IMG/VR virus record: IMGVR_UViG_2737471861_000021
From: a virus
Taxonomy: Duplodnaviria; Heunggongvirae; Uroviricota; Caudoviricetes
Reading direction: 5' to 3' (one strand)
DNA: 27,857 nucleotides
The position numbers and the translations under genes were made by a program. Shown here piece by piece: positions 1 through 21,228 of the stretch. The notes below the pieces were generated by a model. It was not told the origin of the DNA and did no database searches. It saw only the letters and a program-made list of their open reading frames with translations. How positions within the stretch are numbered: the stretch's first letter is position 1; each line of letters begins with the position of its first letter.

Positions 1-537
1 ATGACCACTATTACCAAAGAACGTATTGAATTGTTCATTAAAAATCCGCTTGAAAACGGGCTTACTCGTGGCGAACAAATGGAACTGGCACGAATTGCAC
101 TGGCATCACTGGGAGCAGAACCTGTAATCCAAACTTACAACTTGCCAGAATTAATCGAAGGCATGGAGGTTTCCATTGATGTAAGCACTTGTGATGCGGA
201 TTTAGGTAATCGCTATTTCGGTACCGTCACCGAGGCGTTAGAACTTGATACTGCCAAGAATGGTTACATCCTCCTGGTTCAGGACGCAGAGCCAAACTTC
301 GATATAAATGGCAACTCTCCGGTAACTCCGGATGGTTGGATAAGCTGTAGTGAGCGAATGCCAGATGATGGTCAGCACGTAATTATTTTATGTGATGGCG
401 CATTCGTTCTTTATGCGCAATATCGAGACGGAGAGTTTTTCGATATTGTCCGCAATGGTGATGAATTTTTCGAAACACAGAGTCGCAATGTAACCGACTG
501 GATGCGGCTACCGGAACCGCCGCAGGAGGTGAAGTGA
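1..537 (+). CDS. Phage early-region protein with a C-terminal DUF551-like domain (Eaa/Ead-like)
   Basis: 178-aa ORF starting at ATG 1. The C-terminal '[23 protein letters not shown]' pattern resembles DUF551 proteins of lambdoid prophage nin regions (recollection). Its stop overlaps the next start (TGATG). Confidence 0.55.
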
Positions 538-878
538 TGGACTATTCACAGTTAAGTGATTTTGAAATTAACAGAATGGTAGGAGACATAATTTTTAAAG
601 GCCTTTGGGCATGTAAACCGGAAACATCAGGGAATAACACCAACAAATGGTATTACGGAAATACTGATACAACTTTTGAGCCATTAAACCCTTTACCTGA
701 CTACTGCAATGATCCGAGCGCCTCATGGCCGATTATTGAGAAACACAGGATTTCTATCTTAGACCAGTTAACTGAATGGTGTGTGGATGCAAAAGACGTA
801 AGACCAATATTTGATACCAGACCTCTCCGAGCCGCCATGATTGTATTTCTCATGATGCAGGAAAATCAGAATGGCTAA
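537..878 (+). CDS. Hypothetical small phage protein (possibly DUF2591-like)
   Basis: ORF track 534..878; the ATG at 537 overlaps the upstream stop and is the likelier start. Translationally coupled within a three-gene string; family assignment is from memory only. Confidence 0.5.
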
Positions 879-1209
879 ATCAGCAGCAGAGCGCAAAGCC
901 GCTCAGAGAGCCAGACAAGCTGCATCTGGTGTGCGTAAGCTGGAAATTGTGCTTGATGCTCAGGAAATTGAAATGCTGGAGCGTAACTGTGCCACGCGTC
1001 GCCCCGGGCGTGCGCCTTACGAATTTGGTGAGTATATAGCGTTACTGATCCGCCAAGATGATGCACGCGTGCACGGGCGTATAAAATCGATCAGCAGAAA
1101 ACGTTGCGGTAAGTGCGGCGAGAGAGTTCCAGTTAATTCATGTCCGTGTAATGGTGACTCACAATGCTGGGTGACTAAAGGCTGGCATGAAACGAAATTA
1201 ATAGTGTGA
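871..1209 (+). CDS. Small basic Cys-rich (putative zinc-finger) protein; candidate regulator
   Basis: 112-aa ORF with a basic N-terminus ([15 protein letters not shown]) and a C-terminal Cys cluster ([21 protein letters not shown]). Last gene before the terminase operon; its stop codon lies inside palindrome copy 1. Confidence 0.5.
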
Positions 1210-1218
1210 CATGTCACG
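1205..1218. repeat. Palindrome TGTGACATGTCACG, copy 1 of 3
   Basis: Read directly from the sequence; overlaps the TGA stop of the 871..1209 gene. Other copies at 3506..3519 and 20739..20752. Confidence 0.7.
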
Positions 1219-1258: not shown

Positions 1259-1285
1259 GCCGCCAACTATGGCGGCTTTATTTTG
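1259..1285 (+). terminator. Rho-independent terminator-like hairpin upstream of terS
   Basis: GCCGCCAACTATGGCGGC stem-loop followed by TTTATTTTG. It lies inside the long N-terminal extension of track ORF 1250..1960, which argues that extension is not coding. Confidence 0.5.
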
Positions 1286-1327: not shown

Positions 1328-1960
1328 ATGATGCCTGCTGAACCTAAAACCTATAAACGCAAATCAACGCAATTTAAGCCGCTCACAGCAATGCAGGAGG
1401 CTTATTGCCAGTCATACATCAAAACGCCTGAAAACCAGACTCAGGCAGCGATTAACGCAGGATTCTCCCCAAATACAGCGGCAGTTAAAGCCAGTGTCAT
1501 GATGCGCGATGAACGCATTCAAAAACGGATTGCCGAGTTGATGGAGGAGCGCAACAAGCGCCTGCGCGTCAGTGCTGATTATGTCCTGCTGCGCCTGGTG
1601 GAAATCGACCAGATGGACGTGCTGGATATCCTGAACGATGACGGCGGGATGAAGCCGATCGCTGAATGGCCGAAGGTCTGGCGTACCTCTCTCAGTGCTA
1701 TGGATATCGCTACCATCAAGACGACCCAGGCTTCTCTGCAAAAAGAGAATGGCGAGGCGGATCTCTCTGTTGAGGATGTCGAGCATATCCTGAAGAAGGT
1801 GAAATGGCCCGACAAGGTGAAAAACCTCGAGCTCATCGGTAAGCACGTCGACGTTAACGCGTTCAAAGAGCGCCTGGATGTTAATGTGAATGTGACAATT
1901 GCTGATCGCATAGCGGCAGCCAGGAAGCGACTCAAAGAACGTCAGGATGGTAATCAGTGA
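1328..1960 (+). CDS. Terminase small subunit (Terminase_2-like)
   Basis: Internal Met start chosen downstream of the terminator hairpin (track ORF 1250..1960). The 'KPLTAMQEAYCQSYIKTPENQTQAAINAGFSPNTAAVKA' region looks like small-terminase HTH proteins (recollection). Stop overlaps the large-terminase GTG start. Confidence 0.6.
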   Translation: MMPAEPKTYKRKSTQFKPLTAMQEAYCQSYIKTPENQTQAAINAGFSPNTAAVKASVMMRDERIQKRIAELMEERNKRLRVSADYVLLRLVEIDQMDVLDILNDDGGMKPIAEWPKVWRTSLSAMDIATIKTTQASLQKENGEADLSVEDVEHILKKVKWPDKVKNLELIGKHVDVNAFKERLDVNVNVTIADRIAAARKRLKERQDGNQ

Positions 1961-3482: not shown

Positions 3483-3507
3483 AGCCAGCTCATAGGCTGG
3501 CTGTTTG
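3483..3507. terminator. Bidirectional terminator hairpin between convergent genes
   Basis: AGCCAGC-tcatag-GCTGGCT stem-loop flanked by an A-run upstream and GTTTG downstream. Sits between terL (+) and the convergent 123-aa gene (-). Confidence 0.5.
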
Positions 3508-3519
3508 TGACATGTCACG
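3506..3519. repeat. Palindrome TGTGACATGTCACG, copy 2 of 3
   Basis: Identical 14-mer to copy 1; 4 bp beyond the stop of the minus-strand 123-aa gene and abutting the terminator hairpin. Confidence 0.7.
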
Positions 3520-3522
3520 GTG

Positions 3523-3894
3523 TTATTGCTCGCTTAACTTCTGCTTCAGCAAGTAACCTTCAAGCATCCAGATTTTGTTTACAGCATTCTGCCGGGCAAT
3601 CTTCCGACCAATTTCTGCATCAAAGTTTTCCGGGCTTGCACAGGCGCTCTCTCCGGTGACGGTGAAGCCGTTGCGCAGCACCAGGACGCAGAACGTCAGC
3701 AGAGAAAGTGATTCGTGCGGCTGGTAGTTTACCTCTCCGCCAGTATGTTTCGCTTTTATGGATTTGCCAAAGGCACCATCTTCTGCTGTGAAATATGCCT
3801 CCTGAGCAATAATGCCTTCGATATGGTCTGGCGTAACGCGCGGTGCCGTTTTGCCTTTCTCAACGATTTCTTTTTCGATTTGCTGGTCGTTCAT
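3523..3894 (-). CDS. Conserved hypothetical phage protein, reverse-oriented cargo gene (possibly N4 gp49/Sf6 gp66-like)
   Basis: 123-aa ORF on the minus strand with a strong RBS (AAGGTGAG) before its ATG. Opposite orientation to all flanking structural genes. Family guess is recollection only. Confidence 0.55.
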   Translation of the reverse strand: MNDQQIEKEIVEKGKTAPRVTPDHIEGIIAQEAYFTAEDGAFGKSIKAKHTGGEVNYQPHESLSLLTFCVLVLRNGFTVTGESACASPENFDAEIGRKIARQNAVNKIWMLEGYLLKQKLSEQ

Positions 3895-4092: not shown

Positions 4093-4169
4093 TGGCGTGG
4101 CATGCAGGATTCGAACCTGCGACCAACCGCTTAGAAGGCGGTTGCTCTGTCCAACTGAGCTAATGCCAC
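4093..4169 (-). tRNA. tRNA-Arg (anticodon UCU)
   Basis: Minus-strand 77-nt sequence GTGGCATTAGCTCAGTTGGACAGAGCAACCGCCTTCTAAGCGGTTGGTCGCAGGTTCGAATCCTGCATGCCACGCCA folded by hand into a cloverleaf: 7-bp acceptor stem, GCTC/GAGC D-stem, anticodon loop CUUCUAA (UCU), GCAGG-TTCGAAT-CCTGC T-arm, encoded CCA. Closely resembles E. coli argU as I recall it. Confidence 0.85.
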
Positions 4170-6497: not shown

Positions 6498-6790
6498 CAG
6501 ATTACGAAGACGATCAACTGAAAGAAGAAAACGACCGTAAGCAACGTGACATGGCACAGCGTGAAATTGATGACATTCGCTTTGTCATGAGCAGTGAACA
6601 GGGGCGTCGAGTTGTCTGGTCGGTGCTGGAGAAAGGCCGTGTGTTTTCCGCTATCTCGCCGATGGACGCTATGGCAATGGCATTTAATGAGGGGCAACGC
6701 AATCTGGCGCTGGAACTGTTTCAGCGCGTTATGGCGCATTGCCCTGAACAGTATTTGAAGATGGCCAAAGAGGCCAGTGAACAGGAGTGA
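6494..6790 (+). CDS. Small head-assembly-associated protein, function unknown
   Basis: 98-aa acidic ORF translationally coupled to both portal and scaffold genes. Confidence 0.5.
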   Translation: MTDYEDDQLKEENDRKQRDMAQREIDDIRFVMSSEQGRRVVWSVLEKGRVFSAISPMDAMAMAFNEGQRNLALELFQRVMAHCPEQYLKMAKEASEQE

Positions 6791-7496: not shown

Positions 7497-8489
7497 ATGA
7501 CAATGGCTGTTAAAGGCTTAACTGCGCTAACGCTGGCTGACTGGGGTAAGCGCGTCGATCCAAACGGGAAAGTCGATAAGATTATCGAGCTTCTCGGTCA
7601 AACTAACCCGATCCTTCAGGATATGCCTTTTGTCGAAGGGAACCTTCCTACCGGACACCGAACCACCATTCGTTCTGGTTTACCTTCAGCTACCTGGCGT
7701 TTGCTGAACTATGGCGTACAGCCAAGCAAATCAACCACAGTGCAGGTAACCGATTCCGTTGGCATGCTGGAAACCTATGCTGAAGTCGATAAGTCACTGG
7801 CTGATCTGAACGGTAATACCGCCGAATTCCGCCTGTCTGAAGACCGCGCATTTATTGAAGCGATGAATCAGCAGATGGCGCAGACACTGTTTTATGGTGA
7901 TTCCAGCGTTAACCCTCAGCAGTTTATGGGACTGTCCTCCCGCTATTCCAGCCTGTCTGCGGGTAATGCTCAGAACATCATTGATGCTGGTGGCACGGGT
8001 ACAGATAACACCTCAATCTGGTTAGTGGTGTGGGGCGAAAACACCGTGCATGGCATCTTCCCGAAAGGGCAGAAGGCTGGCATCCAGATGGAAGATAAAG
8101 GCCAGGTGACACTGGAAGATGCGAATGGCGGCAAGTACGAAGGCTACCGTACCCATTACAAATGGGACAACGGACTTGCTCTGCGTGACTGGCGTTATGT
8201 TGTTCGCATTGCAAACATCGATGTCAGCAATCTTTCAGAACCTTCCTCTGCCGCAAATATTGCGAAGTTGATGGTTAAAGCACTGCATCGCATTCCAAAT
8301 CGTGGCATGGGTCGCCCGGTGTTCTACATGAACCGCACTGTAGGCCAGGCTCTTGATCTGCAATCTCTGGAGAAAACATCTCTGGCGATCAGCGTAAAAG
8401 AGACAGAAGGCGAGTGGTGGACTTCATTCCGTGGTGTACCAATCCGTGAAACTGATGCGCTTCTGGAAACAGAAGCCCGCGTGGTGTAA
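7497..8489 (+). CDS. Major capsid protein
   Basis: 330-aa ORF with a strong RBS, following the scaffold gene and followed by a hairpin. Size and position match the major capsid protein of epsilon15-like or T7-like heads. Confidence 0.75.
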   Translation: MTMAVKGLTALTLADWGKRVDPNGKVDKIIELLGQTNPILQDMPFVEGNLPTGHRTTIRSGLPSATWRLLNYGVQPSKSTTVQVTDSVGMLETYAEVDKSLADLNGNTAEFRLSEDRAFIEAMNQQMAQTLFYGDSSVNPQQFMGLSSRYSSLSAGNAQNIIDAGGTGTDNTSIWLVVWGENTVHGIFPKGQKAGIQMEDKGQVTLEDANGGKYEGYRTHYKWDNGLALRDWRYVVRIANIDVSNLSEPSSAANIAKLMVKALHRIPNRGMGRPVFYMNRTVGQALDLQSLEKTSLAISVKETEGEWWTSFRGVPIRETDALLETEARVV

Positions 8490-10303: not shown

Positions 10304-12774
10304 TGGCTATCAGTTGGATCCAGCCCAGCTTTGCCGGTGGTGAGATTGGACCGTCGTTGTACGGTCGTATCGACATGGCGAAGTACCAGGTGGCATTGCG
10401 CAAGTGCGATAACTTTATCGTGCGGCAGTATGGCGGCGTTGAGAATCGACCTGGTACGCGTTTTGTCGGTGCCGCCAAATACCCAAATCGGAAATGCCGC
10501 CTGATCCCGTTCCAGTTCTCGACGGTTCAGACCTACGCTCTGGAGTTCGGACACCAGTACATGCGCGTTATCAAAGATGGTGCGTTGGTGCTGAACAGCA
10601 GCAATGTTATTTATGAAATTGCCACACCATATACTGAAGCCGATCTGTTCCGAATTAAATTCACGCAAAGCGCCGACGTGCTTACGCTGGTTCATCCGGC
10701 ATACCCGCCGAAAGAGTTGCGCCGCTATGCGCATGACAACTGGCAACTGGTTGATGTGGTAACGAAGAACGGGCCATTTGAAGATATCAATATTGACGAG
10801 TCAGTGACGGTTTATGCCAGCGCCAGCACCGGGACAATTACGTTAACGGCAAGCGCCTCTATTTTTGGCGCGGAGCAAGTAGGCAAATTGTTCTATCTGG
10901 AACAGCCTGCAGTGGATTTAGCACCGGTATGGGAAACCAGTAAGAGTACGTCGATTGGCGATATTCGCCGTGCAGACAGTAACTACTATCGCGCCGTTAC
11001 AGCAGGCAAAACAGGTACTTTGCGCCCTTCGCATACAGAAGGCACATCATGGGATGGCTGGGGCGGATCCGGTGATGATGATACTGGCATTGAGTGGGAG
11101 TATCTGCACAGTGGTTTTGGCATTGCCCGTATCACTGCTGCAAATGGCACTACTGCAACTGCCGAGGTAATTTCCTATATCCCTTCGCAGGTCGTTGGCG
11201 AGGATAATGCCAGCTATAAATGGGCTAAATATGCTTGGAACAGTGTTAATGGCTATCCTGGCACTGTTGTTTATTATCAACAACGTCTTTACTTCGCCGC
11301 ATCGACTGCGTTCCCTCAGACTATCTGGGCCAGCCGTACTGGGGATTATAAGGATTTTGGCAAAAGCAATCCTACGCAGGATGATGACAGAATTATCTAC
11401 ACCTATGCCGGGCGTCAGGTTAATGAGATCCGCCACCTGATTGATGTTGGTTCGCTGGTGGCGCTGACTTCCGGAGGTGAGTACGTCATCACCGGCGACC
11501 AGAACAAAGTATTAACCCCATCATCATTTGCATTCAGCTCTCAGGGATCAAATGGCTCGAGCAATGTCCCACCAATTGCCGTGGCGAATATTGCTCTGTT
11601 CGTCCAGGAGAAAGGCAGTGTTGTCCGTGATCTGGCCTACTCATTCGATGTTGACGGTTATCAGGGGAACGACCTTACTATCCTTGCCAATCATCTTTTT
11701 CAGAAGCACAGAATTGTTGACTGGTGCTTCTCGATTGTCCCTTACTCTAGTGCCTTCTGCATTCGTGATGACGGTAAATTACTGGTGATGACCTATTTGC
11801 GTGATCAGCAGGTTTTTGCATGGGCACCACAATCCAGTACCGGAAAATATGAAAGCACATGCAGTATCAGCGAAGGAAATGAAGATGCGGTGTATTTCGT
11901 CGTTAACCGAACCGTTAACGGGCAAACAGTGAGATACATCGAGAGACTGTCCAGCCGTTTATTTACCAGCGATGAAGATGCTTTCTTTGTTGATTCTGGC
12001 CTTAGCTATGATGGAAGAAATACGTCTGACAGAACGATGATCATCACTGGTGGTTCTGGTGAATGGGATTACCGCGCGGAATATACAATCAGTGTTTCTG
12101 GTGGTGCGTACTTCACCAGTAGTGATGTCGGTGCGCAACTACAGTTCCCTTATACCGGAACTGTTCCTGATACTGGCGATGAAGTGTCAAAAGAATTACG
12201 TTGCGACATTATTTCTGTAACCAGCAATACCGCTGTAGTGGTTCGTGCTAACAGGAACGTCCCGCCATCCCTCAGGAATGTGGCCACCACGAACTGGCAG
12301 ATGGCGCGCCGGACATTTGGAGGCCTGTCTCATCTTGAAGGCCAGACCGTAAACATTCTCTCTGATGCGAACGTGGAACCACAGAAAGTGGTTTCCGGAG
12401 GTGCCGTCACGCTGGAATCTCCGGGGGCTGTAGTGCACATCGGCCTGCCAATAACTGCTGAATTCGAAACACTGGATATCAACATTAACGGACAGGAAAC
12501 GCTGCTGGACAAAAAACAGGTGATCCCCTCCGTTACTCTGGTTGTGAATGCCAGTCGCGGCATCTGGGCGACTACGCCCGGCGGTAAATGGTACGAATAT
12601 CCACAGCGTGAATTCGAGTTCTACGATGATCCTGTTGATGATGCTACCGGAAAAGTAGAAGTGAAACTGGACAGTAACTGGGGCAAAAACGGACGTGTAA
12701 AAATCCGTCAGCTTGATCCGTTGCCGCTGTCTGTTCTTGCCGTTATTCCTCGCCTTACTGTTGGGGGATTCTGA
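10303..12774 (+). CDS. Tail tubular protein B / nozzle (T7 gp12-like)
   Basis: 823-aa ORF after the adaptor gene; size and order match a podovirus nozzle protein. Confidence 0.55.
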   Translation: MAISWIQPSFAGGEIGPSLYGRIDMAKYQVALRKCDNFIVRQYGGVENRPGTRFVGAAKYPNRKCRLIPFQFSTVQTYALEFGHQYMRVIKDGALVLNSSNVIYEIATPYTEADLFRIKFTQSADVLTLVHPAYPPKELRRYAHDNWQLVDVVTKNGPFEDINIDESVTVYASASTGTITLTASASIFGAEQVGKLFYLEQPAVDLAPVWETSKSTSIGDIRRADSNYYRAVTAGKTGTLRPSHTEGTSWDGWGGSGDDDTGIEWEYLHSGFGIARITAANGTTATAEVISYIPSQVVGEDNASYKWAKYAWNSVNGYPGTVVYYQQRLYFAASTAFPQTIWASRTGDYKDFGKSNPTQDDDRIIYTYAGRQVNEIRHLIDVGSLVALTSGGEYVITGDQNKVLTPSSFAFSSQGSNGSSNVPPIAVANIALFVQEKGSVVRDLAYSFDVDGYQGNDLTILANHLFQKHRIVDWCFSIVPYSSAFCIRDDGKLLVMTYLRDQQVFAWAPQSSTGKYESTCSISEGNEDAVYFVVNRTVNGQTVRYIERLSSRLFTSDEDAFFVDSGLSYDGRNTSDRTMIITGGSGEWDYRAEYTISVSGGAYFTSSDVGAQLQFPYTGTVPDTGDEVSKELRCDIISVTSNTAVVVRANRNVPPSLRNVATTNWQMARRTFGGLSHLEGQTVNILSDANVEPQKVVSGGAVTLESPGAVVHIGLPITAEFETLDININGQETLLDKKQVIPSVTLVVNASRGIWATTPGGKWYEYPQREFEFYDDPVDDATGKVEVKLDSNWGKNGRVKIRQLDPLPLSVLAVIPRLTVGGF

Positions 12775-20738: not shown

Positions 20739-20752
20739 TGTGACATGTCACA
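20739..20752. repeat. Palindrome TGTGACATGTCACA, copy 3 of 3 (perfect 14-bp palindrome)
   Basis: Seen directly; lies between the small membrane ORF stop and the GC hairpin. Confidence 0.7.
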
Positions 20753-20768
20753 GGCCGCTTTCGCGGCC
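20753..20768. terminator. GC-rich hairpin between convergent transcription units
   Basis: GGCCGC-TTTC-GCGGCC stem-loop between the + strand core operon and the minus-strand small gene; U-tract is weak. Confidence 0.35.
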
Positions 20769-20775
20769 CTTAAAT

Positions 20776-21033
20776 TTACCGGATTTGTTTTCGTAATTGT
20801 TCGGCACAATAGTCGAGATGTGTTTGCAGATCCTGCATAGACATCTGTGAGCTGGTGACGTAGTTAATCAGTGCAGTCAGTTCGGCAAGTGGGCCATCGA
20901 CATTAAATCCATCCTTATCGAGATCCCGGAGTAATTTCATCAAGTGCGATCCCTCCACCAGTGACCTGACGCCTCCCGGCGTGTGAATCCTTTCGGTAAA
21001 TCCGTCTTCCAGTGGATAGTGATACTGCTGCAT
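20776..21033 (-). CDS. Small SOS-regulated protein of unknown function (85 aa), reverse-oriented inside the tail module
   Basis: Internal ATG of track ORF 20776..21156 with a GGAGAA RBS. A LexA box lies 22-37 nt upstream of this start. Translation MQQYHYPLEDGFTERIHTPGGVRSLVEGSHLMKLLRDLDKDGFNVDGPLAELTALINYVTSSQMSMQDLQTHLDYCAEQLRKQIR. Confidence 0.5.
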   Translation of the reverse strand: MQQYHYPLEDGFTERIHTPGGVRSLVEGSHLMKLLRDLDKDGFNVDGPLAELTALINYVTSSQMSMQDLQTHLDYCAEQLRKQIR

Positions 21034-21054
21034 CTTATCTTCTCCATGCAATAA

Positions 21055-21070
21055 CTGTATATTTATACAG
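21055..21070 (-). promoter_or_regulatory. LexA (SOS) box
   Basis: CTGTATATTTATACAG is a perfect CTGT-N8-ACAG with an AT-rich spacer. The extended 20-mer AACTGTATATTTATACAGTA closely matches the E. coli consensus TACTGTATATATATACAGTA. It sits just upstream of the minus-strand small gene. Confidence 0.7.
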
Positions 21071-21228
21071 TAGCAAATAATTTGTTTGCTATCCAGCACG
21101 TTTTGCAAATTACCCGAAAGGTAATATCTATTCATATTCACAGTCTTTCTATCCATATGTGGTTTTTCAGGTAATAGAATAACCAGATATGCGGCGCAAC
21201 GGGTGCTGCGACTATCTGGAGATTTAAC

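Follow-up and report, generated by a model that had tools for sequence, protein, structure and literature searches.

The 112-aa protein encoded at positions 871-1209 of the DNA analysed here very probably binds a 12-bp palindrome, GTGAC-N2-GTCAC, one copy of which contains the stop codon of the gene itself, and comparison of phage sequences indicates that gene and palindrome form a co-inherited module. The DNA (referred to as the window, 27,857 nt in full length; IMG/VR record IMGVR_UViG_2737471861_000021) is an epsilon15/phiV10-like prophage. We assign the palindrome to this protein because the predicted fold is of the ribbon-helix-helix (RHH) type, the linkage between gene and site is retained down to about 30% protein identity, protein and site vary and decay together, and the gene is the only one that the palindrome-bearing genomes share; the protein is thus a good candidate for the palindrome binder that a preliminary description of this sequence had suggested it to be. 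The new result, as far as sequence comparison can tell, is the linkage of gene and site across unrelated types of phage.

Pathogenic E. coli and Salmonella often carry prophages of the epsilon15/phiV10 type, and we know of no identified late-gene switch in these phages. The gene is the best positioned candidate for such a switch, with the three palindromes of the window as defined targets for mutation. The protein family (PHROG 536), previously uncharacterised, can now be defined together with its probable DNA code, and the location of the site in the stop codon makes it easy to annotate both jointly. Homologues of the 112-aa protein include epsilon15 gp49, phiV10 gp55 and TL-2011b gp20; one search returned 720 clusters at 90% identity and another 152 representatives at 50% identity, from morphologically unrelated phages of Enterobacterales, Vibrio, Aeromonas, Shewanella and Pseudomonas. 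Our literature search found no experimental study of any family member and no paper containing the palindrome motif, and the family is not mentioned in the literature found on the epsilon15-like phage group and on RHH or zinc late regulators.

Gene and palindrome in the window and in other phages

The features of the window that bear on the analysis are as follows.

871..1209, plus strand: family gene with a 112-aa product, ATG start, TGA stop at 1207-1209
1206..1217, no strand: palindrome copy 1, GTGACATGTCAC, which holds the TGA stop of the gene; probable cognate site
1259..1284, plus strand: intrinsic-terminator-like hairpin GCCGCCAACTATGGCGGC (GCCGCC-N-GGCGGC at 1259-1276), then TTTATTTT (T-run)
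1331..1960, plus strand: terS (Terminase_2), which opens the packaging/structural operon behind the terminator
3483..3502, minus strand: terminator-like hairpin between terL (plus strand) and the convergent minus-strand gene 3523-3894
3507..3518, no strand: palindrome copy 2, GTGACATGTCAC, 4 nt from hairpin 3483-3502 and 4 nt from the stop of the minus-strand gene
6546..6557, no strand: one-mismatch copy GTGACATGGCAC within a coding region, conserved in TL-2011b and phiV10
20740..20751, no strand: palindrome copy 3, GTGACATGTCAC, 1-2 nt before a hairpin
20753..20768, plus strand: terminator-like hairpin GGCCGCTTTCGCGGCC, end of the structural operon

The 5' end of the gene overlaps the 3' end of NinX (534-878), and the gene is therefore part of the early operon. 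The layout given in the preliminary description, with the gene as the last one before a terminator hairpin and terS and its stop codon embedded in a recurring palindrome, was reproduced in every element: the TGA falls within the palindrome at 1206-1217, the hairpin at 1259-1276, 41 nt past this palindrome, parts the early operon from terS, and the pattern GTGACNNGTCAC has three exact matches in the window where shuffles predict 0.02, a count of three being reached in no shuffle. All three exact copies are intergenic and lie 2-41 nt from a terminator-like hairpin, and copy 3 follows, at 7 nt, the stop codon that closes the structural operon's last small membrane-protein gene. It is uncertain whether the copy at 6546 is a real site. 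The hairpins stand along the late transcription path and are weak in the plus direction in the window; the T-tail of hairpin 3483-3502 is good on the minus strand and weak on the plus strand, and the counterpart of hairpin 20753-20768 in phiV10 and TL-2011b has a proper T-tail.

Several other identities of the palindrome were rejected. A CI/Cro operator was discounted, there being zero copies in the immunity regions of phiV10 and TL-2011b. The CRP/FNR consensus has the spacing TGA-N6-TCA, and the palindrome, with TGA-N4-TCA, was discarded as a site of this type on spacing. An RNA switch formed by palindrome and terminator was dismissed since both fold independently and the palindrome hairpin is weak. 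The GTGACA of palindrome 1 could serve as the -35 element of a promoter (GTGACA-18-CATGAT, 9/12 matches), for which a counterpart was recognised by eye in 66FD and none was seen at copies 2 and 3 or in ZF40 and L218; this promoter is unproven.

The palindrome lies at or in the stop codon of the family gene in the window, 66FD, ZF40 (1 nt past the TAA stop), L008, phiKO2, a Yersinia P2-like phage and the Pseudomonas loci L218, L223 and L214. The linked homologues share 28-77% protein identity and are surrounded by different neighbouring genes. The same genomes carry one to seven further copies of the palindrome, and when arm spacings of 0-5 nt were searched in nine genomes and loci, N2 was the only one found; for a 14-bp palindrome of L005, GGGACCATGGTCCC, no link to the family was established. 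The exact site was present in 75 of 80 close relatives and carried one mismatch in 5 of the 80; these relatives came from a single-protein locus search and all have at least 97% identity, so that they inform on conservation of the site and not on divergence.

Protein and site co-vary. The Pseudomonas loci L214 and L215 have six to eight sites of the pattern (0.08 expected), mostly in the form GTTAC-N2-GTAAC, and their basic helix reads KR..KR.A in place of the conserved RK..QR.R; the stop-codon site of L214 is a GTGAC/GTAAC hybrid. In P0145 the helix is degenerate, the last Cys is lost and the site is degenerate as well. In a phylogenetic profile of the phiV10 ORFs across the seven other genomes that bear the palindrome, the family gene alone had homologues in all seven.

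It could be argued that the palindrome is the target of another factor, of host or phage origin, or a boundary of mosaic recombination, and that the gene merely hitch-hikes with it. Mosaic junctions are indeed found exactly at the 3' edge of the palindrome, with a 70-aa moron inserted directly after it in 20 of the 80 close relatives, and the half-sites equal those of the host matS. Furthermore, among 120 IMG/VR loci picked by a 14-mer palindrome alone, a family member was present within the stretch covered in 32 and missing from it in 88. However, in a collection of this size about 200 chance matches to the 14-mer are expected (a rough estimate) and the loci are partial contigs, which together explain most of the 88. 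No other gene is common to the palindrome-bearing genomes, the site changes and decays along with the protein, and the linkage survives from Escherichia to Pseudomonas in five different terminase/morphotype backgrounds. The true 13-bp matS, GTGAC-N3-GTCAC, is absent from the window even with one mismatch, and its exact form from the nine genomes and loci of the arm-spacing search. We regard this alternative as very improbable.

Predicted fold of the 112-aa protein

The structure was predicted with AlphaFold using the family alignment; a run on the single sequence reached a pLDDT of only 44 and was unusable. The alignment-based model, a monomer with a pLDDT of 92, consists of the following parts, to which the conserved Cys cluster is added.

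Residues ~5-19: basic N-terminal helix (AlphaFold model)
Residues ~20-29: ribbon (AlphaFold model)
Residues 30-42: helix A (AlphaFold model)
Residues 52-75: long helix B (AlphaFold model)
C79, C82, C89/C91, C99: conserved Cys4 knuckle, C-terminal to the RHH part
Residues 100-108: short C-terminal helix (AlphaFold model)

The strand-helix-helix fold of the RHH superfamily is present in the model, and the nearest folds are almost all RHH DNA-binding proteins, MatP among them. Structure prediction, proposed in the preliminary description as a check for a zinc-ribbon or DNA-binding fold, has therefore returned a DNA-binding fold of the RHH type at pLDDT 92, and the basic helical N-terminus and Cys cluster that it had described for this 112-aa protein agree with the ORF and the model. 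The cluster reads C79-x2-C82 ... C89-x-C91 ... C99; C79 and C82 show no variation in an alignment of 58 diverse homologues, more than 90% of them have C99, and one extra Cys always lies 8-10 residues N-terminal to C99. An RHH core followed by a Cys4 knuckle is thus predicted with high confidence.

Database comparisons gave little beyond the family itself. Foldseek against PDB and BFVD yielded nothing significant except a fragment of the same family; Pfam, NCBIfam and PADLOC yielded no significant match for the whole protein, the C-terminal halves or the 58 homologues, and PDB sequences none for the 112-aa protein. Curated RHH models scored below threshold only (RHH_5, E 0.013, in 2 of 58; RHH_1, E 0.071, in 1 of 58; YbfE, E 0.051), and hhalign against CopG gave P 0.009. 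The two-fold symmetry of the site and its co-variation with the protein support, indirectly, that the repeat is probably read by an RHH dimer. In comparison to RHH proteins such as CopG, Arc and MetJ, the phage protein carries additional parts on both sides, a conserved basic helix ahead of the ribbon and, past helix B, a Cys4 knuckle and a helix; its cognate site lies at the 3' end of the gene and not in the promoter of the gene. The possibility of an RHH antitoxin belonging to a toxin-antitoxin pair was rejected, as the downstream genes are unrelated across contexts, except in two N15-like phages, and PADLOC provided zero matches.

The C-terminal half shows a borderline similarity to F-plasmid TraR. 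TraR and DksA bind in the secondary channel of RNA polymerase. A profile search of PDB sequences gave TraR an E value of 0.024-0.035, and hhalign gave P 8e-5 to 3e-4 at a probability of 39-62%, with a score of 24.0 against at most 19.3 for 30 shuffles. Residues 47-106, with a helix, a CxxCG..P zinc motif and a second helix, span nearly all of TraR; DksA was aligned over 11 residues only, at the CxxCG motif. On the other hand, the Cys spacing is CxxC-x17-CxxC in TraR/DksA and CxxC-x6-8-C-x8-9-C in the family, with the fourth Cys placed elsewhere, the acidic DxxDxA tip before the aligned helix is missing from the family, and Pfam zf-dskA_traR is absent among the families listed for the homologues. 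The protein is probably not a member of the TraR family.

The fold also bears on whether the palindrome is read as RNA. The N-terminus is basic and rich in Arg and Lys, in size the protein comes close to lambda N or HK022 Nun, transcription passes through the palindrome just ahead of terminators, and the G-to-T change of L214 leaves the arms complementary; all this would suit an N- or Nun-like protein that binds the transcribed hairpin and alters the adjacent terminator. Nevertheless, N and Nun are disordered while the RHH core is predicted to be well folded, the hairpin is marginal (-2.9 kcal/mol, z -0.5) and has no alternative pairing with the terminators, and the hybrid stop-codon site of L214 would mispair as RNA. 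The arms are conserved beyond what pairing demands and the centre is free, which points to a dimer reading double-stranded DNA. The RNA-based explanation is, in our opinion, highly improbable, and DNA binding is the preferred reading.

Position of the sites and a possible role in transcription

In the window and in Vibrio, Shewanella and Pseudomonas phages, the early genes end with the family gene, after which come a terminator and the late genes, and no Q family (Pfam) is listed for the called genes of those Vibrio, Shewanella and Pseudomonas phages. No recognisable Q, N or Ogr homologue was found in the early regions of epsilon15/phiV10-like prophages, and none of ten other early ORFs scanned in TL-2011b and phiV10 matched an antiterminator PHROG. 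In L218, L223 and K303 the gene precedes a promoter, a leader, terminators and the lysis genes; the palindrome lies ~95 bp upstream of the late transcription start in L218 and L223, with spacings that differ by 4 bp, and is centred ~140 bp upstream of it in K303. In the window the gene is followed by a terminator and no clear late promoter is visible. The gene thus lies immediately upstream of the late operon in the window (terminator only), L218, L223, K303 and L214, but not in ZF40, phiKO2, L005, L008 or the P2-like phage.

Such a position, where it occurs, resembles that of lambdoid Q genes (Q-lambda, Q82, Q21), which are likewise the last early genes just upstream of a terminator or promoter and the late genes; in both cases gene and DNA site lie physically together, and terminator-like hairpins in the late path imply a need for read-through. 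The family resembles no Q family in sequence or fold, and its site is a palindrome in several copies which, where a late promoter is visible, lies ~95-140 bp upstream of the late start. The Q families PF03589, PF06530 and PF06323 matched neither the window protein nor appeared among the families listed for the 58 homologues, and wherever a sigma-70-like late promoter is visible, the palindrome is neither within nor adjoining it, as a Q-type binding element would be. With Ogr/Delta of P2 and P4 the family shares a small four-Cys phage protein and a dyad-symmetric element tied to late genes, but the Cys pattern of Ogr/Delta is CxxC-x22-CxxxxC, against CxxC-x6-8-C-x8-9-C, and there is no homology; hhalign against Ogr gave P 0.17 over 9 residues, with an approximate Ogr query sequence. 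The resemblance to Ogr/Delta or Q factors put forward in the preliminary description was thus not borne out by Pfam, NCBIfam, PDB-sequence or Ogr comparisons.

The explanation that we favour, with a probability of about 0.45 for the whole, is that the protein is a small sequence-specific DNA binder with an RHH core, probably dimeric, a basic helix before this core and a Cys4 zinc knuckle after it, and that the 12-bp palindrome GTGAC-N2-GTCAC is its cognate site. Expressed from the last gene of the early operon, it would occupy the three sites beside intrinsic terminators, which would mark the boundaries of the late path: one ahead of terS, one past terL, and one where the structural genes end and the tailspike and lysis genes follow. 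There it could act as a delayed-early transcription factor on passing RNA polymerase and modulate termination, most likely in favour of read-through into the late genes, a Q-like role performed by an unrelated protein. A role in transcription at unit boundaries is a possibility to which we give nearly even odds; the direction of read-through and a contact with RNA polymerase through the zinc module are conjecture and rather doubtful. Equally tentative, and also new, is the idea of a Q-like antiterminator in which an RHH DNA reader is fused to a TraR-like, RNA-polymerase-binding module.

A number of observations speak against this explanation. Homologues, close and distant ones alike, coexist with Q-like proteins in ZF40, phiKO2 and L005 (PF06323 or Q-like genes), and the P2-like Yersinia phage closes its early operon with the family gene and has a separate gene at the Ogr position; in these phages the family gene is far from the late promoter and the palindrome is nevertheless kept. 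As such phages already possess Q or a P2-type late system, the family cannot be a general late switch. The earlier proposal of a late-gene regulator therefore stands in part: the Q-like position is found in several lineages, while in others the gene accompanies Q or Ogr. Most sites of L214 lie within coding regions of structural genes with no nearby terminator, which fits a genome-wide DNA mark better than a terminator switch. The distance of ~95 bp in L218 and L223, and its variation, argue against a fixed promoter-proximal activator or a Q-binding-element geometry. Palindrome 2 lies downstream of its hairpin for transcription of the plus strand, proximity to terminators may be partly incidental as intergenic space is scarce in phages, and the similarity to TraR is borderline with a displaced fourth Cys.

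The same sites could instead serve as roadblocks or insulators, like the stoperators of mycobacteriophage L5, with the bound protein reinforcing the stops between early, late and moron units. Read along the transcript that ends there, the gene stop comes first, then the palindrome, then the terminator, in every case in the epsilon15-like genomes, including the minus-strand moron at copy 2 and ant in TL-2011b. There are sites between convergent genes, at which antisense read-through would do harm, and several are at most 20 nt from the start of the next gene and downstream of any promoter, a position that is repressing and not activating. Nonetheless, the gene belongs to the early operon of the lytic programme, and blocking transcription just ahead of terS would work against late expression; the boundaries already have intrinsic terminators, these phages have separate CI-type repressors, and the sites in the structural genes of L214 would stop late transcription. 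We consider a roadblock unlikely and retain modulation of termination as the preferred reading.

Similarity to matS and a possible role in organising phage DNA

MatP and matS organise the Ter macrodomain of Enterobacterales and Vibrionales. The matS consensus, GTGAC[AG]N[TC]GTCAC (PMC3603311, PMC8669397), has half-sites identical to those of the family site, and the spacer is 3 bp in matS and 2 bp in all linked family sites. It is conceivable, if improbable, that the protein marks or organises phage DNA as MatP/matS or a plasmid centromere binder does, with any effect on transcription secondary or absent; it would then bind dispersed palindromes and bridge, condense, position or shield the DNA. 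Besides the shared half-sites, this would account for sites that are dispersed, two to eight per genome, in L214 partly within coding regions, for a tight cis-linkage of gene and site as is typical of systems acting on the DNA molecule itself, and for retention of the site where the phage already possesses Q or Ogr.

However, the sites of most phages are strongly intergenic and at boundaries of transcription units, which a pure organiser would not need, and many genomes have just one to three of them. The four-helix bundle (PF06303) and C-terminal coiled coil of MatP are missing, the phage protein having a single helix before the ribbon and a putative zinc knuckle after it instead, and hhalign against MatP was not significant (E 0.1, with a single MatP sequence for which homologues were found almost only in E. 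coli). In ParA-carrying elements, other genes adjoining parA are candidates for its partner. To our knowledge Pseudomonas has no MatP or MukBEF, and the family also occurs there and in Shewanella.

A more specific version, which we think quite unlikely, regards the family as the phage counterpart of MatP/matS with an orthogonal code, the same arms placed 1 bp closer. MatP would then ignore the phage sites and the phage protein the chromosomal matS, so that the phage could mark its own DNA for bridging, positioning, or unloading or stalling of SMC complexes (MukBEF, MksBEF, Wadjet-like). Prophages are reported to avoid true matS (PMC3603311), in agreement with such a code. The DNA-reading head of MatP and the phage family might have a common origin. 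The likeness to matS raises the possibility of cross-talk with chromosome organisation, and a near-matS site with 1 bp less at its centre offers a natural test of half-site spacing in phage versus host recognition.

The gene and its surroundings

The open reading frame at 871-1209 encodes a protein of 112 aa, its stop codon lies within the palindrome GTGAC-N2-GTCAC, and a hairpin and then terS follow, as the preliminary description had stated correctly. Its ATG overlaps the 3' end of the NinX gene, which itself overlaps the DUF551 gene, and therefore it closes an early operon whose genes are translationally packed. Escherichia phage TL-2011b matches the region at 97.7% identity, and phiV10 and further Uetakevirus (epsilon15-like) podophages are also close; counterparts of the gene are TL-2011b gp20, phiV10 gp55 and epsilon15 gp49.

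Features of the window
1-537, DUF551 gene
534-878, NinX gene
871-1209 (+), the gene (112 aa), with its TGA stop at 1207-1209
1206-1217, palindrome copy 1, GTGACATGTCAC
1259-1276, GC-rich hairpin, 41 bases past copy 1, followed by TTTATTTT
1289-1302, direct repeat 1 of the terS leader, GGTACTATTACCAC
1306-1320, direct repeat 2 of the terS leader, GGTAACTATTACCAC
1331, start of terS (Terminase_2), followed by terL
3507-3518, palindrome copy 2
3523-3894 (-), gene
4093-4169 (-), tRNA-Arg, anticodon TCT (Rfam 73 bits; ARAGORN)
6546-6557, one-mismatch copy, GTGACATGGCAC
20740-20751, palindrome copy 3
20776-21156 (-), gene

The pattern GTGACNNGTCAC occurs three times in the window against 0.02 occurrences in shuffles, none of which reached three. 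All three exact copies are intergenic, each adjoining a terminator-like hairpin (at 41, 4 and 1-2 nt). The one-mismatch copy lies within a coding region, in a small gene after the portal gene, and is kept in TL-2011b and phiV10, which may reflect coding constraint or a weaker fourth site.

The leader of about 50 nt between the first hairpin and terS is filled by the two direct repeats (1289-1320). Their pattern is kept in Salmonella phage 66FD as TACTATTACCA ... TAATTATTAC, unlike the sequence from palindrome to terminator, which is not conserved there; the repeats could be a translational operator of terS or a packaging-related site. The two minus-strand genes are convergent with the plus-strand late operon and meet it exactly at copies 2 and 3 in a moron-like layout, and a PADLOC search gave no match for either. 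One of them, 3523-3894, is annotated in the phiV10 record as similar to Sf6 gp66 and forms a small island with the tRNA-Arg gene between terL and the portal gene.

Linkage of the palindrome to the gene

The main result of our analysis is that the palindrome belongs to the gene. Homologues in quite different genomic settings carry GTGAC-N2-GTCAC at their 3' ends.

Homologues with the site at the 3' end (identity to the window protein; 3' end; phage or setting)
66FD; 77%; ATG TGA CATGTCAC; Uetakevirus (epsilon15-like), Salmonella
ZF40 gp22; 66%; TAA t TGTGACATGTCACA; Pectobacterium myovirus
L008; 61%; GCC GTG ACC TGTCACGGC region, TGA inside; early-left operon beside int
Yersinia phage; 42%; GTT GTG A CGCGTCAC; P2-like
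phiKO2 gp45; 37%; GCG TGA CTGGTCACG; N15-like
L223 (Pseudomonas); 33%; CTG TGA CTGGTCACA; last early gene
L218 (Pseudomonas); 31%; CTG TGA CCGGTCACA; last early gene

Across the linked sites the arms are constant while the two central bases vary (AT, CT, TG, GC, CG), and a search of nine genomes and loci for arm spacings of 0-5 nt found N2 alone. Among 80 close relatives the exact site stands at the stop in 75, with one mismatch in the remaining five. When 120 IMG/VR stretches of a few kilobases each were chosen solely for containing TGTGACATGTCACA, 32 encoded a family member within the stretch, in most cases with 1 nt between palindrome and gene end; for a collection of that size we estimate that a 14-mer would occur about 200 times by chance, and on this basis the enrichment is very large.

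A 70-aa reading frame (MPKIRYDLEDMRDN...) has been inserted precisely between the palindrome's 3' edge and the terminator in one close relative (L017, 10357-10569) and in about 19 others (L012-L091), about a quarter of the relatives, and the palindrome thus marks a mosaic junction.

Additional copies are present in every lineage, where 0.01-0.08 would be expected in each genome or locus: 66FD has three, at the positions that they hold in the window (one being GTGACCTGTCAC), ZF40, Vibrio phage K303 and locus L222 have three each, Shewanella locus L216 and L223 two each, and L218 four, including one GTTAC/GTCAC hybrid. Pseudomonas loci L214/L215 have 6-8 pattern sites per 20 kb, mostly GTTAC-N2-GTAAC, and there the protein is about 28% identical, with the helix motif KR..KR.A in place of the otherwise constant RK..QR.R. 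In P0145 (locus L221) the basic motif and the last Cys are lost and the stop-proximal site has decayed to ttCACATGTCAC. By these comparisons, protein and site co-vary and co-decay. Moreover, among phiV10 reading frames of at least 45 aa, this gene alone has a homologue in each of the seven other genomes that bear the palindrome; the integrase ranks next (3/7). The earlier proposal that the protein binds the palindrome is thereby well supported on comparative grounds (linkage, co-variation and profile), and an unrelated binder of the palindrome is unlikely.

In prophage L005 (lambda/N15-like), whose family member is 44% identical, another 14-bp palindrome, GGGACCATGGTCCC, is present in four exact copies, all intergenic, and three one-mismatch copies, none adjoining the family gene (listed positions 7804, 12151 with one mismatch, 13481, 16236 and 16348).

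Predicted fold and site recognition

Pfam, NCBIfam and PADLOC searches with the 112-aa protein gave no significant match. The suggested kinship with Ogr/Delta or Q is not supported. An exhaustive search returned 152 representatives after clustering at 50% identity. When 58 full-length members are aligned, C79 and C82 occur without exception, C99 occurs in more than 90% and one more Cys always lies 8-10 residues N-terminal of it, giving the Cys4 pattern CxxC-x6-8-C-x8-9-C; a basic N-terminal motif, AAxRKxxQRxR, is also conserved. A structure prediction had been proposed as a check for a DNA-binding fold, and the AlphaFold2 model made with the family alignment is confident (pLDDT 92.4), with helices at 5-19, 30-42, 52-75 (a long one) and 100-108, an extended segment at 20-29 and a Cys knuckle ahead of the last helix. 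On this model the core is classified, at the level of fold, as ribbon-helix-helix (RHH), in agreement with a weak CopG alignment over strand and helix A (hhalign P 0.009).

Residues 47-106 align with nearly the entire TraR of the F plasmid, an RNA polymerase binder. The profile gave E 0.024-0.035 for TraR and YbiI among PDB sequences, and hhalign against TraR gave a probability of 39-62% and a score of 24.0 against at most 19.3 in 30 shuffles. However, the fourth zinc ligand is at a different place in the family protein and the DxxDxA tip is missing, so that this borderline similarity of the C-terminal half may be taken as a lead, not as family membership.

The conserved arms of the site seem to pair with the conserved basic helix, and its variable centre with variable ribbon residues. 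MatP reads its site in a like manner, with helix alpha4 and strand beta1 both entering the major groove (PMC8669397). Its host site matS is GTGAC[AG]N[TC]GTCAC, consensus GTGACATTGTCAC (PMC3603311, PMC8669397), and GTGACATGTCAC equals this consensus minus one central base. The window has no true matS even with one mismatch allowed, nor was an exact match present in the nine genomes and loci of the spacing search, in agreement with the report that prophages avoid matS (PMC3603311). The family protein as MatP itself was rejected: MatP's four-helix bundle and coiled coil are both missing, a profile comparison was not significant, and the family reaches Pseudomonas and Shewanella. The likeness thus resides in fold, reading mode and half-site, and common descent is unproven. 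A MatP- or centromere-like role, in which the protein would mark or organise phage DNA, is a serious rival to a transcriptional one.

Overall, we put at about 80% the probability of a dimeric RHH-zinc protein with GTGAC-N2-GTCAC as its DNA site, gene and site being inherited as a unit. RefSeq and PHROG 536 (E 1.5e-54) label the gene "transcriptional regulator"; source names were uninformative for the best 120 of 720 listed homologues and ten distant clusters ("hypothetical protein", "phage protein", once "uncharacterized Zn finger protein"). Our literature search found the motif in no paper and no study of the family in work on epsilon15-like phages or RHH/zinc late regulators; the ZX5 paper on this group's regulators covers repressor, antirepressor and integrase only. 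While RHH-type site-specific DNA-binding proteins are known as a kind, the new elements would be the zinc module of this modelled example, a code resembling that of matS and a predicted cognate site that shares its position with the stop codon of its own gene.

Position before the late genes

The proposed role as late-gene regulator is a reasonable but unproven hypothesis. The gene is the final early gene ahead of a strong terminator and terS in the window, and the last or next-to-last before the lysis-packaging-structural block in K303, L216, L222, L214, L218 and L223. No Q-family match is listed among the called genes of the Pseudomonas and Shewanella loci and L222, no gene is annotated as antiterminator in K303, and a PHROG scan of ten other early reading frames of TL-2011b and phiV10 gave no antiterminator. 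In L218, L223 and K303 the gap is laid out in the classic manner of a late promoter with a leader and then one strong terminator or two. In the two Pseudomonas loci (L218, 6102-6310; L223, about 10450-10660) the promoter is near-consensus, reading TTGACA-N16-18-TATAAG/TAAGAT in L218, and a conserved leader, TTTTGT(C/T)CTAGCGTGGTGA with a -10-like TAGCGT, leads to two strong terminators and the lysis genes. A Q-type late promoter has this layout, but neither contig has a recognisable Q gene.

However, ZF40, phiKO2 and L005 possess their own Q-like proteins, the Ogr position of the Yersinia phage is occupied by a gene, and in these four the family gene lies elsewhere in early operons with the site kept. 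Most L214 sites are within structural genes, the late start of L218 and L223 lies some 95 bp downstream of the site with spacing differing by 4 bp between the two, and by eye no promoter is conserved between palindrome 1 and the terminator in the window and 66FD.

We propose that the family protein would be a delayed-early transcription factor acting at transcription-unit boundaries. Terminator-like hairpins in the late path, one after terL and one before the tailspike/lysis genes, both weak in the plus direction in the window, suggest that some read-through device is needed; in this phage the protein would most probably help RNA polymerase pass them, possibly by a TraR-like contact. Judged from position and anatomy, a transcriptional role is tentative, at slightly under even odds, and read-through specifically is doubtful. 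The opposite sign, a roadblock strengthening the terminators that adjoin the sites, is a serious rival, whereas an RNA-level mechanism is unlikely, as the palindrome, folded as RNA, gives a marginal hairpin and no competition with the terminators.

In K303, L216 and L222 one site is only 11-20 nt upstream of the start codon of terS, where an operator would be expected and not an activator site. The copies in the Vibrio/Shewanella HK97-like group with ParA read GTGACACGTCAC (L219, 35942; L216, 14095; L222, 13026) and lie about 20 nt past a T-run in the HNH-terS gap, the usual location of the cos site in such phages.
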